Shown piece after piece: positions 70-5,228 of a DNA stretch of 29,156 nucleotides. Made by a program: the position numbers and the translations under genes. The stretch covers positions 1 through 29,156 of the forward strand of contig JAFGUY010000107.1 of NCBI GenBank assembly GCA_016938245.1, read 5' to 3'. Origin of the DNA: Candidatus Omnitrophota bacterium (GTDB lineage: Bacteria; Omnitrophota; Gorgyraeia; Gygaellales; Profunditerraquicolaceae). Positions within the stretch are counted from its first letter, which is position 1; each line of letters begins with the position of its first letter. The notes beneath the pieces are model-generated. The model saw nothing but the letters and a program-made list of their open reading frames with translations, had not been told where the DNA came from and did not search any database.

Positions 70-627
70 TTATGCGAAAGTCAATAAAACCCAGGCGCAA
101 TCCTGCTCATTATCCACTTCACACTTTCCTTTATTCATTCCTCCGCAGGGGCCATTAAGCAACCCCTTCGGGCAAAGAGTAACCGGGCAAATCCCTCCGG
201 TCTTATCCAAGATACATTCTCCGCACATCGAGCATTTTTCATAAAAATTGCCCTTAGCATCCATAACCGCGCCAAAGGTTGTATTAAGCGCAGGGAAAAC
301 CGCCAAGCTAAACCTGTCGTTATCTTTAAAGGACTGGACGCCTAAGCCGCAGGCTAAGACTAAAACCGCATCTGATTCTTTTAGGGCTTTTATATTTTTG
401 GCTGTCTCGCTTTTAAGTTTTGCCGCCACACAAGGCGCAGAAGGGATGCAACTTCCGGTAATAGTTTTACCGGCTGCCTCTAAATCTTTTTTCATTTGAG
501 CCACTTCCGGTTCGCCTCCGGTCTTACAGGCAGTAGCGCACTCTCCGCATCCGACAATGAAAATTCTAGAGTAGCCTTTTAAGCTATCTATAATAGTTTG
601 AATGGGTTTTCTCTCTGTTATAACCAT
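70..627 (-). CDS. metV: MetV-type methylenetetrahydrofolate reductase small subunit (MTHFR C-terminal-like, Cys-rich); 3' end apparently truncated
   Basis: Motifs GCGECATACKTGG, LACGLGVQ, CSMCGECILDKTGGICPVTLCPKGLLNGPCGG and CEVD..QDCAWVL match the MetV family. The protein stops four residues after CAWVL, where homologues normally continue. Confidence 0.8.
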   Translation of the reverse strand: MVITERKPIQTIIDSLKGYSRIFIVGCGECATACKTGGEPEVAQMKKDLEAAGKTITGSCIPSAPCVAAKLKSETAKNIKALKESDAVLVLACGLGVQSFKDNDRFSLAVFPALNTTFGAVMDAKGNFYEKCSMCGECILDKTGGICPVTLCPKGLLNGPCGGMNKGKCEVDNEQDCAWVLLTFA

Positions 628-633
628 AGGGAA

Positions 634-662
634 ATTTTAACACTAATTAGTGCTATTCTCAA
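634..662 (-). promoter_or_regulatory. Putative sigma70 promoter for metV with a palindrome in the spacer
   Basis: Minus strand reads TTGAGA-N17-TAAAAT with a TGn extension, 6 nt before the ATG. The perfect palindrome CACTAATTAGTG (641-652) lies in the spacer. Confidence 0.4.
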
Positions 663-690
663 GGAAAATAATAAAACTTTTTCCCGGAAA

Positions 691-3684
691 CTATTCTTTT
701 TCTTTCTGTTTCTGTTTTTCTTCGATAAGTTTCTGGGTGATTTCCTGCGGAACCTGCAGGTATTTGGAGAACTCCATGGTGGCATTTGCGCGGCCGCTGG
801 AGAGCGAACGGAAGGCAGTGGCATAACCGAACATTTCTGAAAGGGGTGCTTCTGCGGAGATTATCTTTTGCTTTCCCTTAGGTTCGGCGTTTAGGATTTT
901 CCCGCGACGGGAACAAATATAGCCTATGCAGGCATTAGCATATTCCTCTATTGTTGCAACCTCCAAAGACATATAAGGCTCTAATAAAATCGGTTTGGCT
1001 TTCATAAAGGCTTCTTTAAATCCGAATATCCCTGCCATCTTAAATGCCAATTCAGAAGAATCAACTTCGTGAAAAGACCCGTCATATAATTCTACCTTAA
1101 GGTCAACAACCGGATAACCGACATATACGCCTTTTTGTATTGCCTCAATTACGCCTTTTTCTACTGCCGGAATAAACGAGCGCGGTATCGAGCCGCCTTT
1201 AATTGAATCAATAAATTCAAAACCCTCGCCGGGCTTAGCCGGAATAATCCTTAAATTACAATGTCCGTATTGCCCGCGGCCTCCGGACTGTTTAATATAT
1301 TTTCCTTCGCCTTCTGACTCCTCCGTGATTGTTTCACGATATGCTACTTTTGGCTGACCGACAATTGCCTCTACCCCGAACTCTTCTTTTAGCCTATCGA
1401 CAATAATTTCAAGGTGAAGCTCTCCCATGCCGGTTAAAATTACCTCTTTAGTTTCATCGTCGGTATTAACAAGGAATGTCGGGTCTTCTTCGGTAAGCTT
1501 TGCCAATCCTTTGCCTAATTTATCCTGATCCGACCGGCTCTTTGGCGCAATACTTAATGATACAACCGGCGTTGGGAATTGAATTGCCTCTAATAAAATG
1601 GGATTTGCAGGATCACAAAGTGTATCTCCTGTGACAGTATTGCCTAAACCAACAACCGCTACAATATCTCCGGCAAAGGCATTCTCGATATTTTCTCTCT
1701 GGTTTGCATGCATCTGGACAATTCTAGCAACCCTCTCTCTTTTATTCTTAGTAGAATTTAAAACATACGTCCCGGTCTCTAAACATCCGGAGTAAACACG
1801 CACGTAAACTAACTTGCCCATATGCGGGTCAGCTTGGACTTTAAAAGCCAGCCCGGAAAAAGGCTCGTTAGGCTCAGGCTTGCGCGGCAACATCTTTTCT
1901 TTATCTTCTAAATCGTGCCCCTCTACCGCAGGTACATCCAAAGGCGAAGGGAGATACATAATTACCGCATCTAAAAGCTTTTGCACTCCTTTATTCTTAA
2001 ATGCCGAGCCGCAGATAACCGGAACTGCCTTATTGCCTACAGTGCCGCGGCGTATTCCTAAAGATAATTCTTCTGCGGTAACCGCGCCATCGCCCGACTC
2101 AATATATTTTTTCATTAGGCCTTCGTCAAATGCCGCTGCCTTTTCAATCATAATGCGCCGGTATTCTTTTGCCTTTTCTAAGTAATCCTGCGGGATATCT
2201 TCAATACGGTATTCTTTCCCCTGGGACTCATCCTCATAAATATATGCTTTCATCTCTAATAAATCGATAACACCTGCAAAATTATCTTCTGCCCCTATCG
2301 GTATTTCTACCGGAATAGGATTGCCTCCTAAGTCAGTCTCCATACCCTTTAATACCGCGTAAAAATCCGCTCCGGTCCTGTCCATCTTATTTACAAAACC
2401 TACCTTAGGTACATTATATTTATTTGACTGGTGCCAGACTGTCTCTGACTGCGGCTCGATTCCGCCGACGGCGCAAAAAACCGCCACAGCTCCGTCTAAA
2501 ACACGCAAAGATCTTTCTACCTCAACTGTAAAATCAACATGCCCGGGTGTATCAATTATGTTTATACGGTAGCCTTTCCAAAAACAGGTTGTAGCTGCTG
2601 AAGTAATAGTAATCCCGCGCTCCTGCTCCTGTTTCATCCAATCCATTGTTGCTGCTCCCTCGTGGACTTCGCCTATCTTATGGGAGCGGCCGGTATAAAA
2701 AAGTATCCTCTCGGTAGTAGTAGTTTTCCCGGCATCAATATGCGCCATAATTCCGATATTGCGGGTTTTCTCTAATGAATACTTAGGCTGCGGCTTGGTC
2801 CTTTCTTTAGGACGGGCCTCGGCTTCAACAGGTTGCGTTTCGGGTTCTGGCTCTTCTACCTTGGATTCCTCGGGTGCGGGCTCTTGCGGCGCAGGCGTTT
2901 CTTCCGGCGGTTTTTCCCCTACAACAGGCTTGGCTTCCTCCTTGGCAGGCTCAGGCAGAGGCCCTTCTTGAATCTGTTTTCTTAAATGAGCGATCTCCTC
3001 GGCAAAGCTTTTAAGCCTTTCATCTTTCTGCTCCAGCTCCTTCTCTAAATCAGTATATTCTTCATTTAATTTATTAAATTCCGCTTTAGGGACCCACTCG
3101 CTTATCTTTTCTTTATGCTTAAATTCATCTATTGTCTTTAGATAAACCTTGGCATCCTGCTCATTTTTTTCTATCCTGTGCCGCTGTATTTCAATCTGCT
3201 CGGATTTATCTTTAATAACTTTATCTAATTCAGCTATCTTATCATTAAATTCCCTTATCTCTTTCTTCAGGTTGACATTTTCAGTAAAATCATCCTGCGA
3301 GCCTTTTTCTTTATTTAAAAATTTATTCTTTAGCTCTAAATTCTCCGCCTTAACTTTATTGAGCATCTCTTCAGAAGCAGCTACCCACTTTTCTCTACGG
3401 CCTAACTCCTGTTTTAACCCGTCATACTTGGCTATTGCCTCCTGAAACTGCGCTTTTTCAGAAGCATACAAAGAGCGCGCCTTTTCAAGCTCTGCCTCTA
3501 AAACCTTTGCTTCCTCTTCAAGCCTTGCTATCCTCTGATCGCGGAAATCCGGCAGGGAAGAAATATTATTCTTTTTCTTCTGCTTCTTTTCTCTAGGGGA
3601 TGACGCGGGTGAAAGAATCCCGAATAATGCATATATAACCATGCCTGCTGCCGGAACTAAAATTATTAATGTTAGGTTATCCAT
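691..3684 (-). CDS. fusA: Elongation factor G with ~300-aa N-terminal extension (TM helix + coiled coil + Pro/Glu linker)
   Basis: Residues ~300-997 carry all canonical EF-G motifs: [62 protein letters not shown]. Residues 1-25 are hydrophobic, ~47-241 are E/K/L-rich heptad-like, ~242-300 are P/E-rich. One uninterrupted ORF. Confidence 0.95.
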
Positions 3685-3687
3685 TTT

Positions 3688-4995
3688 CTATTTTTCGTTT
3701 CTACGCAGCTTGGCCATACGCTCTTTTATCTTAGCCTCATACCCTATTTCCGTCGGCTCATAATAGCGCACTTTTTTACGGGTATATTTTTGTTTTACAT
3801 AATGCCCCTTATAATCATGGGCATATTTATAATCTTTGCCGTGGCCTAAATCTTCTCCGTCTAAAGTGGCATCCTTTAAATGATCCGGGACATCCTGAAC
3901 CTTATTATTCTCTATGTCCTGCATTGCCTTGTCAATAGCTAAATAGCTGGCGTTAGATTTGGGGGCGCAAGATACGTAAATGACTACTTGTGCCAGAGGA
4001 ATACGCGCTTCAGGCATGCCGACAAATTCTGATATTTGCAAAGCAGCGTTTGCCAAAACTAATGCCAGAGGATCGGCATTACCAACATCTTCAGCTGCTA
4101 AGATACAAACCCTACGGCAGATAAACCTCGGGTCTTCTCCGGCATAAAGCATCTTAGCCATCCAGTAGAGCGCTGCGTCAGGATCACTCCCGCGCATAGA
4201 TTTAATAAAAGCAGAGGCAGTATCATAATGTCCGTCTTCATCCTTATCATAAACAACCGGCTTTTTCTGGATAGACTCTGCTGCAACCTCTAAATTAAAA
4301 TCAATAAACCCGTCTTTTGATTTAGGGGTAGTAAGGGCCCCGACTTCCAGCGCATTAAGGGCTCTGCGCGCATCCCCTTCACAGGTATGCGCCAGGAAAT
4401 CAAGCGCCTTTTTATCTGCTTTAATCTTTAAAGAGCCTAACCCTGACTCTTTATCCTTTAAGGCGCGGTTTAGAATAGCAATAATATCGGCTTCTTTTAG
4501 GCTTTTAAGCTCGCAAACTAATGAGCGCGATAATAAAGGCGCGGCAAGAGAGAAGAAGGGGTTATGCACTGTAGCCCCGATCAGTACAGGATTTCCGCTT
4601 TCTATATCCGGGAGAAGCACATCCTGCTGGGCTTTGTTAAAACGGTGTATTTCGTCTATAAAAAGGATGGTTTTTTTATTGGTATTGGCTTGTTTCTGCT
4701 TTGCGGATGCAATTATCTTACGCAATTCCTCAACATTGGGAGTAGTAGCATTAATTCCGGTATAATATGATTTGGTAATATTGGCAACGCACCATGCCAG
4801 AGAAGTCTTCCCTACGCCCGGAGGGCCAAAGAGGATAAGCGAGCTTAAGCGGTCAGCTTCGATTGCCCGGCGCAAAAGTTTACCCTTGCCTAATATATGC
4901 GCCTGTCCGGTAAAATCATCTAAAGACGCCGGGCGCATGCGCACTGCCAAGGGGAGTTTTTTTATATCAACCGGTTTTTCTTCGAAGAAGTCCAT
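3688..4995 (-). CDS. rarA: Replication-associated recombination protein A (MgsA/RarA AAA+ ATPase)
   Basis: LAVRMRP, Walker A GPPGVGKT, Walker B LFIDEIHRFNKAQQD, GDARRALN, YDKDEDGHYD..SAFIKSMRGSDPDAALYW, EFVGMPEARIPL. Confidence 0.95.
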   Translation of the reverse strand: MDFFEEKPVDIKKLPLAVRMRPASLDDFTGQAHILGKGKLLRRAIEADRLSSLILFGPPGVGKTSLAWCVANITKSYYTGINATTPNVEELRKIIASAKQKQANTNKKTILFIDEIHRFNKAQQDVLLPDIESGNPVLIGATVHNPFFSLAAPLLSRSLVCELKSLKEADIIAILNRALKDKESGLGSLKIKADKKALDFLAHTCEGDARRALNALEVGALTTPKSKDGFIDFNLEVAAESIQKKPVVYDKDEDGHYDTASAFIKSMRGSDPDAALYWMAKMLYAGEDPRFICRRVCILAAEDVGNADPLALVLANAALQISEFVGMPEARIPLAQVVIYVSCAPKSNASYLAIDKAMQDIENNKVQDVPDHLKDATLDGEDLGHGKDYKYAHDYKGHYVKQKYTRKKVRYYEPTEIGYEAKIKERMAKLRRNEK

Positions 4996-5200: not shown

Positions 5201-5228
5201 AGTATAACACATATTTTGGGAAAGTCAA
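5201..5228 (-). promoter_or_regulatory. Sigma70-type promoter of 6S RNA
   Basis: TTGACT-N16-TATACT with TGn extended -10, directly upstream of the 6S RNA. Confidence 0.7.

Follow-up and report, generated by a model that had tools for sequence, protein, structure and literature searches.

The window analyzed here, a 29,156-nucleotide stretch from a Candidatus Omnitrophota bacterium (contig JAFGUY010000107.1, assembly GCA_016938245.1), contains a gene (691..3684, minus strand, stop codon at 691-693) that encodes a 997 aa fusion of a transmembrane (TM) helix, a stalk and a linker with elongation factor G (EF-G). The single uninterrupted ORF of 997 codons reported in an earlier note on this DNA is confirmed, and its strand is minus, as for all the features discussed below; at the local base composition, the probability of 997 open codons occurring by chance is about 1e-27. 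Directly upstream lies rarA/mgsA (3688..4995; Pfam MgsA_C and AAA_assoc_2), coding for an AAA+ ATPase, with its stop 3 nt ahead of the fusion ATG, the spacing given in the earlier note, and the two genes are likely to belong to the same transcription unit. The rarA gene is immediately upstream in 11 of 11 family loci and, among species representatives, in 39 of 56 fused and 16 of 23 stalk-only loci, with a modal 4-nt overlap; the other neighbors are genes for a glycine-zipper lipoprotein or a PilZ protein, cyclophilin and uvrD. A consensus scan, the only source for either site, detects a TG-extended promoter-like sequence, TTGACT-16-TATACT (5201..5228), ahead of rarA and just after the hairpin that trails pheT, and a second promoter-like site (634-662) past the stop of the fusion.

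It is extremely improbable that the true product is an ordinary soluble EF-G and that the long ORF results from a chimeric assembly, from read-through across two genes or from a wrongly called start. In the public annotation, the ORF is given as 891 aa beginning at Met107, so that the anchor is missing, and the GC content is unequal among the stalk (0.39), the linker (0.60) and the EF-G part (0.44), as might be expected of an artefact. However, the protein sequence of residues 1-106 is conserved (alignment A1), and the GC contrast is explained by the different amino-acid compositions of the parts, in particular by P and E codons. In a Logan assembly made independently from what is likely the source run, a 12.4-kb contig covers positions 600-3800 with 1 substitution and 0 gaps relative to the window, and without any stop or frameshift in the fusion. 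More than 100 species, recovered from numerous samples and with numerous assemblers, share this co-linear layout including the TM helix; at least 119 homologs are full-length at about 1000 aa, and no pair of separate genes stands in its place in relatives. An in-frame scan of aa 230-312 identifies no ATG, GTG or TTG; in 18 aligned fusions, the position at which the free EF-Gs of the same lineage start, adjoining the invariant Pro300, has no Met. An internal start that would give a soluble EF-G is rejected because the linker has no start codon, and a separate soluble product is not evident from the sequence. The independent assembly, the start scan and the loci of relatives rule out a split gene or an assembly artefact. 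The sole RNA run of the study gave no RNA support for the fusion, its signal being confined to 30-40 nt of a conserved GTPase region that derives from other organisms, and no proteomic data for the fusion were found. The fusion is a real, conserved gene of one Omnitrophota class, and the covalent layout of membrane anchor, stalk, leash and EF-G is real as well; no description of a membrane-tethered EF-G of this kind was found in the searched literature, in agreement with the earlier note, which knew of no described example.

Anchor, stalk and linker

Domain and family matches, hydropathy and both AF2 models agree on the architecture of the protein. The N-terminal TM helix (aa 2-24, 3613..3681; an AF2 helix over the same residues) includes the hydrophobic string of aa 4-24 noticed earlier; the Kyte-Doolittle 19-residue maximum (KD19) is 2.53 at aa 6-24, the sole such segment in the whole protein, and KD19 reaches at least 1.6 in 111 of 120 homologs. 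The predicted orientation, N-out/C-in, is based on hydropathy, charge bias and AF2 and conforms to the positive-inside topology proposed before: across the 120 homologs, K+R averages 0.08 before the TM helix versus 4.7 in the 20 aa after it. The helix is followed by a basic, disordered juxtamembrane segment (aa 25-46, 3547..3612; 25% K, pLDDT below 50 at aa 29-45), in which the patch REKKQKKK occupies aa 31-38 and the K/R character of the patch is conserved in alignment A1.

The stalk begins with a helix of 148 aa and about 22 nm (aa 47-194, 3103..3546) that carries the invariant residues W100 and H169 and is predicted by AF2 as a single helix with pLDDT of 90-98. Its heptad a/d positions are hydrophobic at an occupancy of 0.5-0.88, and the register shifts near aa 176. 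The conserved hinge SEWVP (aa 195-199, 3088..3102) breaks the helix in both AF2 models, and a second helix of 41 aa and about 6 nm (aa 200-240, 2965..3087) is delineated by AF2 and by the alignments. In a set of 59 sequences that includes fused and stand-alone forms, W100, W197 and K200 never vary, and W197 does not vary even in distant stand-alone stalks; conservation within the module peaks in the hinge and the first third of helix 2 (K[18 protein letters not shown]) taken together. The coiled-coil-like region described in the earlier note is thus borne out as long and helical (aa 47-240) but not as one unbroken coil of 29 nm, given the 22-nm helix, the hinge and the 6-nm helix. AF2 predicts the stalk as a straight single helix and not as a hairpin.

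The P/E-rich linker (aa 241-301, 2782..2964), also anticipated in the earlier note, consists of 61 aa with 27% E and 25% P, is predicted to be disordered (pLDDT of about 33-47), and varies in both length and sequence in alignment A1. Such a long disordered segment is a plausible protease substrate, and in five species a gene for a PilZ protein (c-di-GMP receptor) lies directly upstream of the fusion. These features would be compatible with a regulated reservoir, in which the membrane would hold a store of EF-G, either inactive or inaccessible, until linker proteolysis or a c-di-GMP-type signal frees it. However, the variable linker contains no visible conserved cleavage motif, no protease gene is linked at the fused loci, and the PilZ neighbor occurs in a few lineages only and is not found in the window, so that a reservoir of this kind appears highly improbable.

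The EF-G part and its lineage

The remainder of the protein (aa 302-997, 694..2781) is, by profile matches and phylogeny, a complete EF-G of a lineage, B, that is located outside the str operon. It comprises domains G (with G'), II, III, IV and V and a K/E-rich tail; the homology to EF-G spans aa 302-991, and the profile match in the genome lies at 712-2781. The Pfam domains are GTP_EFTU (aa 306-580), EF-G_D2 (608-691), EFG_III (703-776), EFG_IV (778-897) and EFG_C (900-985), and the AF2 fold is consistent with a five-domain EF-G. Against TIGR00484 (EFG I equivalog), the protein scores 1048.1 bits over model positions 5-690 of 691, well above the cut-off of 659.4 (1049 bits in the genome search). 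The G1-G4 motifs, with the P-loop, RGITI, switch II DTPGHVDF and NKxD, and both domain IV tip loops are intact in 119 of 119 fused homologs including the window protein, so that the full EF-G with intact GTPase and domain IV motifs announced in the earlier note is indeed present. Judging by these motifs, the EF-G part is catalytically intact and looks fully functional. No residue was found that is invariant in the fused EF-Gs and absent from the free ones, and fusion-specific substitutions as a sign of new function are accordingly rejected.

The closest solved relatives are the EF-Gs of Thermus thermophilus (896 bits) and Escherichia coli (871 bits), and other family assignments fail: the scores are 505 for EF-G2/EFG II (NF009377, cut-off 890), 493 for Bacteroides EF-G2 (NF058620, cut-off 1000) and 369 for the tetracycline ribosomal protection protein (NF012153, cut-off 775). 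A spdEFG1/spdEFG2 or mitochondrial EF-G1/EF-G2 type (PMC3150367, PMC4342817) is likewise rejected by a comparison with the mitochondrial proteins, with 582 bits to mitochondrial EF-G1 and 480 bits to mitochondrial RRF2/EF-G2 as opposed to 896 bits to T. thermophilus EF-G; the match to 1WDT is 405 bits. Bacteroides EF-G2 (fusA2; PMC6989115) and T. thermophilus EF-G2 (1WDT) resemble the window protein in being alternative paralogs that accompany a housekeeping factor, but they are soluble, and the window protein remains below both family cut-offs. A PDB profile search also identifies the solved structure of an artificial chimera in which L9 is attached to the N-terminus of EF-G. This chimera was reportedly solved on the ribosome, which suggests that EF-G may still bind ribosomes when something is attached to its N-terminus.

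As stated in the earlier note, the gene lies outside the rpsL-rpsG-fusA-tuf operon, which is found on another contig (C86) of the same genome and contains a normal fusA of 701 aa; an additional short EF-G paralog of 650 aa is encoded in this genome as well. In the phylogenetic tree, where the clades were labelled after a check of operon context, free non-str EF-Gs and all fused EF-Gs form clade B (support 100/97), with nine of ten fused sequences in one nested clade (92/95). Identity with the housekeeping fusA is thereby rejected, as the fused EF-G lies outside clade A, which contains the str-operon EF-Gs and the single-copy ones. The EF-G part of the window protein shares 69% identity with free B proteins and 54% with the fusA of its own genome, and free lineage B EF-Gs exist in sister families. 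The fused EF-G is an accessory member of this second, non-str lineage, with the housekeeping fusA kept alongside. Strict coupling between the fusion and the short 650-aa paralog, suggested by five genomes of one genus, does not hold, given that two other genomes (G244 and G361) encode the fusion without it. Paralogs cannot be counted from the phylum-wide search with TIGR00484, in which no more than two candidates per genome were scored.

Compared with canonical EF-G (FusA, EFG I, TIGR00484; e.g., 1DAR/4V5F and the E. coli protein), the fusion shares the full set of five domains and all motifs but differs in its 301-aa N-terminal extension (TM anchor, stalk and linker), its location and lineage, and its dispensability in some relatives (see below). 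A related arrangement is known in Pseudomonas aeruginosa, where EF-G1A is encoded in the str operon and EF-G1B elsewhere; both are soluble and 84% identical, translocation is mainly the task of EF-G1B, and EF-G1A has been suggested to function in ribosome recycling (PMC3832671). As in Omnitrophota, a gene in the str operon is accompanied by another of the same subfamily that lies elsewhere and is highly conserved; the Omnitrophota copies differ in being only 54% identical and in that one of them is predicted to be membrane-tethered. The fusion offers a handle on the purpose of second EFG I-type paralogs.

Distribution and fate of the stalk family

A search with just the N-terminal part of the fusion as query finds at least 152 homologs. 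The stalk module is present in 105 of 401 genomes of the phylum sample, all within one class, and in 58 of the 59 genomes of the family to which the window belongs; when 185,579 species were scanned, 133 matches resulted, of which the best 80 all come from Omnitrophota-type MAGs. The window protein matches stalk profile A2 with 367 bits, and the N-terminal TM helix and the W100-type and SEWVPK-type motifs are present and co-linear. Other families have stand-alone homologs, 195-350 aa long, in which W100 and the motif EW-x-x-K-x-E are retained. Searches of Pfam, NCBIfam, PDB profiles, Foldseek and the ESM atlas for kinship of the stalk to known families return only generic coiled-coil noise. 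The stalk is an autonomous protein family restricted to Omnitrophota, a pre-existing lineage-specific membrane protein to which EF-G became attached.

Among 80 species representatives, 56 encode the fusion and 23 a stalk-only form. At the 23 stalk-only loci, the gene order rarA-...-cyclophilin-uvrD-DUF5981 is retained and an EF-G gene is absent within 3.5 kb; the stalk-only forms fall into two nested clades of 21 and 2 species. They are in-place deletions of EF-G, made at least twice, and they are still under purifying selection (dN/dS of 0.13-0.16, compared with 0.05-0.12 for fused stalks). The species with the EF-G part deleted are left with the stalk and a single fusA. The recurrent loss shows that the tethered factor is dispensable, and the retention of the stalk after at least two such deletions implies that it is not merely a tether for EF-G. 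Attention shifts to the stalk as an uncharacterized membrane protein family, whose partner, rather than EF-G, is the thing to find.

These observations could also be taken to mean that the stalk comes first, as a membrane scaffold, and that EF-G is mainly a ribosome-binding hook, which would moor ribosomes for storage, hibernation or partition in a cell with few ribosomes instead of driving translocation. The stalk family is older than the fusion and outlives the loss of EF-G, its most conserved site is the distal hinge/head, and membrane-anchored ribosome binders are known in bacteria: YqjD, ElaB and YgaM of E. coli are small proteins that span the inner membrane once and bind ribosomes at the membrane through their cytoplasmic part (bioRxiv 10.1101/2024.08.16.608256). 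However, these proteins are C-tail anchored, lack a GTPase and inactivate ribosomes, and Pfam and PDB profile searches detect no homology between them and the stalk. All 119 fused homologs strictly retain the catalytic elements, namely the P-loop, the His of switch II and the tip loops of domain IV, and the EF-G domain evolves slowly, at the same pace as free EF-G (74-88% identity, similar to rarA, as against 47-72% for the stalk). Such strict catalytic conservation fits selection for full cycling, which a mere docking handle would not need, and the hook reading is considered unlikely.

Other cargo on the same stalk was searched for and rejected, the longer profile matches inspected being fusions cut by contig ends. 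Three TM-coiled-coil proteins bear an MshEN domain, two of them also PilZ, and share with the stalk only the pattern of the first ~90 aa; homology of these proteins to the stalk is unproven because the W100 and SEWVPK motifs are absent.

Possible roles of the tethered EF-G

The best explanation of the combined observations, to which we give about an even chance of being correct, is that the stalk and the leash keep a pool of ordinary EF-G tethered at the membrane side. The stalk, probably a parallel coiled-coil dimer, would extend about 28 nm from the membrane into the cytoplasm, with the conserved distal hinge/head as its own working site, for a partner, and EF-G would hang from this head on a leash of 4-22 nm. 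Translocation- and recycling-competent EF-G would thereby be held permanently in the membrane-side layer of a tiny cytoplasm, where it would serve ordinary ribosomes as a normal GTPase, so that the gain from the fusion would consist in local supply and placement of EF-G and not in new chemistry. The rigid (~28 nm) and flexible (4-22 nm) parts give a total reach of ~32-50 nm, which is estimated to cover 63-95%, in round terms about 70-90%, of the cytoplasm in a cell of 0.2 µm, the size used for the estimate (PMC10066038). With such coverage, the tether confines EF-G little, and membrane placement may accordingly impose little restriction; a role in membrane-linked translation is what we infer from the layout.

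A narrower function, proposed in the earlier note, is that of a factor dedicated to translocation or recycling on ribosomes docked at SecYEG/YidC, which would boost the supply of EF-G for co-translational membrane insertion. The predicted topology places a catalytically intact EF-G, as judged by motifs, in the cytoplasm beside the membrane, and a eukaryotic analogue exists, namely kinectin (KTN1), a TM-anchored coiled-coil protein that holds the EEF1B complex, through EEF1D, at the ER membrane (PMC13231004, PMC12768868). However, no Sec, YidC, SRP, FtsY or ribosome genes are linked to the fusion loci, the reach exceeds the expected need of a membrane-docked ribosome (as estimated from ribosome size) and spans most of the cytoplasm, and the species that lost the EF-G part manage with the stalk and one fusA. 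The proposal is left without support from gene context, and a dedicated role of this type seems doubtful.

The anchor of kinectin and of p180/RRBP1 is N-terminal, and both proteins resemble the fusion in combining a membrane anchor with a long cytosolic coiled coil. The stalk might be viewed as a counterpart in design of these proteins, with its distal head organizing ribosomes or factors under the membrane and the EF-G fusion as the covalent form of this arrangement; p180 promotes the association of ribosomes and polysomes with the ER (PMC3326322). Kinectin differs in that its hold is non-covalent and involves the eEF1B exchange factor, not a translocase. Pfam and PDB profile searches detect no sequence kinship of the stalk to kinectin or p180, the likeness is an analogy of design only, and a scaffold of this kind is regarded as unlikely. 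If this reading were true, translation in these nano-sized bacteria would be spatially structured by a dedicated lineage-specific scaffold.

EF-G is usually regarded as a freely diffusing factor. Under the preferred reading, that of a tethered pool of ordinary EF-G, a membrane-fixed EF-G that exists beside a normal one in more than 100 species would be the first case encountered in the searched literature of a bacterial translation GTPase positioned by covalent tethering, and would provide a handle on whether ultra-small cells organize translation spatially. Gene callers often drop the anchor, so that databases file such proteins as plain "elongation factor G".

The fusion gene and its EF-G part

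The fusion occupies 691..3684 of the minus strand as a single open frame of 997 codons, uninterrupted as the earlier note had described it; from the base composition, the chance of a frame this long staying open is approximately 1e-27. A 12.4-kb Logan contig, from a run that is probably the source of the window DNA and hence an independent assembly but not an independent sample, covers positions 600-3800 without gaps and with one substitution, a C>T difference at window position 2573; the stop that would be expected in the reads if there were two separate genes does not appear in it. The reading of the fusion as an artefact is refuted. The public gene call (library protein P0002) begins at Met107 and yields 891 residues, so that the anchor is lost; the missing part (aa 1-106, window 3367-3684, minus strand) takes in the TM helix together with 60 residues from the start of the stalk. 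About nine of the 120 homologs look short-called in the same way. The fusion gene was not found in any RNA run.

Residues 302-991 constitute a complete EF-G with all five Pfam domains, and the match to the NCBIfam model TIGR00484 reaches 1048 bits, against a cut-off of 659. All 119 fused homologs surveyed keep an intact P-loop, [13 protein letters not shown] and NKxD as well as both tip loops of domain IV, in agreement with the initial view of a full EF-G with intact GTPase and domain IV motifs. The best solved relatives are the EF-Gs of Thermus thermophilus (896 bits) and Escherichia coli (871 bits), with mitochondrial EF-G1 (582 bits), T. thermophilus EF-G2 (405 bits) and TetQ (393 bits) far behind. 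In the EF-G alignment, no column was found that is invariant in the fused forms and absent from the free ones. Among eleven loci of the family, identity to the window is 74-88% for EF-G, 77-85% for rarA and 47-72% for the stalk.

The linker (aa 241-301; 27% Glu, 25% Pro) contains no in-frame ATG, GTG or TTG. The position that matches the starts of the free EF-Gs of lineage B (the second, non-str lineage), as taken from the N-termini of these proteins, carries no Met in 18 aligned fusions and adjoins the invariant Pro300. Nothing here points to a separately translated soluble EF-G.

The membrane stalk and its predicted role

The hydrophobic segment quoted in the earlier note corresponds to aa 4-24 (Kyte-Doolittle 19-residue maximum of 2.53), is the only one of that kind in the whole protein, and is followed by the basic patch REKKQKKK (aa 31-38). 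For the N-terminal region, an AlphaFold2 model built from a 59-sequence alignment predicts a TM helix (aa 2-24), disorder (aa 25-46), an uninterrupted single helix (aa 47-194, pLDDT 90-98), a helix break at SEWVP (aa 195-199), a second helix (aa 200-240) and disorder up to aa 303; the full-length model has the same N-terminal layout, with an EF-G fold beyond a linker of pLDDT ~33. In the stalk, heptad a/d occupancy ranges from 0.5 to 0.88 and the register shifts near residue 176. Given the predicted helices, the break and the heptad data, the modeled stalk is a helix of ~22 nm, a hinge and a helix of ~6 nm, rather than the single ~29-nm rod originally envisaged. Conservation within the module peaks at the hinge and the start of helix 2 ([10 protein letters not shown][11 protein letters not shown]); W100 and H169 are further conserved positions. 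The stalk has no match to any known family.

An N-terminal segment with a Kyte-Doolittle 19-residue value of at least 1.6 is present in 111 of the 120 homologs, and the remaining nine look like short-called starts. The mean number of Lys and Arg residues in these homologs is 0.08 ahead of the TM helix versus 4.7 in the 20 residues after it, a bias that fits a predicted N-out/C-in orientation.

In the fusion, an intact accessory EF-G of lineage B is covalently attached to a membrane stalk that is autonomous and specific to Omnitrophota. By geometric inference, the rigid part measures ~28 nm, and the 61-aa linker adds 4-6.5 nm rms, or as much as 22 nm at full stretch; with a reach of 28-45 nm, EF-G would cover 63-95% of the cytoplasm volume at a radius of 70-100 nm, and Omnitrophota cells are ~0.2 µm across (PMC10066038). 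The tether would hold EF-G at the membrane but need not confine it to translocon-bound ribosomes. The most likely role, to which we give about an even chance as a general statement, is that of an ordinary EF-G that would hang by a leash from the conserved head of the stalk and so be kept on the membrane side of the cytoplasm. That the tethered EF-G serves Sec/YidC-docked ribosomes is less likely, given this reach and the absence of linked Sec, YidC and SRP genes; mooring of ribosomes by the tethered EF-G and a releasable reservoir are likewise less probable than an ordinary EF-G on a leash.

Full-text literature searches yielded no description of a membrane-anchored EF-G; a survey of trGTPases (PMC4342817) mentions no membrane or TM feature, and two genome papers on Omnitrophota are silent about the fusion. 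The nearest precedents by design include EF-G1A/1B of Pseudomonas aeruginosa (PMC3832671), kinectin, which anchors EEF1B to the ER (PMC13231004, PMC12768868), p180 (PMC3326322) and YqjD/ElaB/YgaM (bioRxiv 10.1101/2024.08.16.608256). New here are the tree of the EF-G lineages, the test of the stalk for selection, the demonstration by synteny of in-place deletion, and the lack of both fused-form-specific substitutions and an internal start codon.

EF-G lineages and the origin of the fused copy

The host genome (1.01 Mb, 96% complete) encodes three members of the EF-G family: the fusion (691..3684, minus strand), a 701-aa fusA in rpsL-rpsG-fusA-tuf (contig C86), i.e., the second, ordinary copy sought in the str operon, and a 650-aa paralog (contig C13, L003:1471-3423, minus strand). 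The latter lacks ~48 residues of the G/G' region, measured as the gap between two matched stretches, and scores 833 bits with NF009381 and 653 bits, slightly below the cut-off, with TIGR00484. Most genera of the window's family have an ortholog of it (60-79% identity), whose presence is not strictly coupled to the fusion.

In a maximum-likelihood tree of 42 EF-Gs, all from Omnitrophota, clade A (support 99/94) unites the str-operon fusA of the window's class with the single EF-G of other classes, clade B (100/97) contains the free non-str EF-Gs of families f13, f24, f30 and f20 along with all fused forms, and the short paralogs make up a third group on a long branch. Nine of the ten fused sequences form one clade nested within B (92/95). 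The EF-G part of the tenth (genome G310; loci L055, L036) pairs with the free B copy of the same genome (100/100), which suggests gene conversion or re-fusion, i.e., a second fusion event. Genomes of f30 (G381, locus L067; G133, loci L068 and L069) possess four EF-G genes (str-operon A, free B, fused B and short), and with 941-982 bits their str-operon copy ranks below their free B copy (1072-1093 bits); in G381 (C3:86000-99000), free B is the gene immediately upstream of the fusion. Free B is absent from the window's family, so that the tethered copy is the only B-type EF-G there. For the EF-G part of the window, identity is highest to free B (69%), lower to the fusA of the same genome (54%) and lowest to the short paralog (38%).

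Distribution, neighborhood and loss of EF-G

A search started with the N-terminal 310 residues identifies at least 152 proteins, nearly all ~1000 aa long and with EF-G domains. In a sample of 401 genomes of the phylum, the module is present in 105, all from the window's class and including 58 of 59 from the window's family and 15 of 17 from f30; the ~100 genomes sampled from other classes all lack it. Among 185,579 prokaryote species, a pattern scan detects 133 relatives, the best 80 of which are all labelled Candidatus Omnitrophota/Omnitrophica, bar a few 'uncultured Planctomycetales' and one plain 'bacterium'. A profile search of 1.84 billion representatives produces 321 matches at E <= 1e-3, of which 55 also pass E <= 1e-30. 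Three TM and coiled-coil proteins of the representative library (P0217, P0243, P0251) resemble the stalk over its first ~90 residues, with a c-di-GMP-binding MshEN domain in the place of EF-G and, in P0243 and P0251, also PilZ; as they have neither the W100 nor the SEWVPK motif, this likeness may represent coiled-coil convergence.

The rarA stop lies 3 nt ahead of the ATG of the fusion, as first noted, and rarA is directly upstream in 39 of 56 fused and 16 of 23 stalk-only loci, most commonly with a 4-nt overlap; because the loci are kin, this linkage may be inherited rather than functional. Promoter-like sites (consensus matches only) ahead of rarA and after the stop of the fusion hint at a rarA-fusion transcription unit. 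In deeper-branching lineages, a small same-strand gene directly precedes the fusion, often with rarA before it, and encodes a glycine-zipper lipoprotein (lipobox; Pfam Rick_17kDa_Anti/Gly-zipper) in at least 11 loci (L096, L104, L106, L111, L121, L128, L139, L141, L154-L156) or a PilZ-domain protein in five (L103, L115-L117, L150); neither gene is present between rarA and the fusion in the window. Unlike in many relatives, no cyclophilin or uvrD gene separates the fusion from DUF5981 (MTHFR C-terminal-like) in the window (70-627, minus strand), which fits further reduction of a 1.0-Mb genome.

The 80 species representatives divide into 56 with the fusion (median 1019 aa), 23 with a complete ORF of 248-412 aa that encodes the stalk only, and one truncated at a contig end. 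None of the 23 has an EF-G gene within 3.5 kb, that is, the relatives do not carry the two parts as separate genes, and the stalk is followed by cyclophilin, uvrD and DUF5981, as are many fused copies. The stalk-only genes therefore arose in place, by deletion of the EF-G-coding part, rather than by the splitting of a gene. In the stalk tree, stalk-only clades of 21 species (100/99) and two species (100/100) are both nested within a fused clade (100/99), implying at least two losses of EF-G followed by speciation. Within one genus, three stalk-only genomes have a single EF-G, the str copy, and two fused genomes have three. Pairwise dN/dS of the stalk is 0.13-0.16 among stalk-only species and 0.05-0.12 among fused species; thus, the stalk stays under purifying selection.

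Distant stand-alone homologs of 195-350 aa, some sharing a genome with the fusion, occur in other families and retain the TM helix and basic patch along with W100 and, at the hinge, the EW-x-x-K-x-E motif. Those of loci L027, L029 and L160 (228-349 aa) show a recurrent gene order, with a 545-632-aa protein, the stalk, and a 389-395-aa protein, which in L027 is a class I/II aminotransferase; TPR repeats are confirmed in the large protein of L027 only, and in L160 the stalk and the 395-aa protein are separated by a 169-aa ORF.
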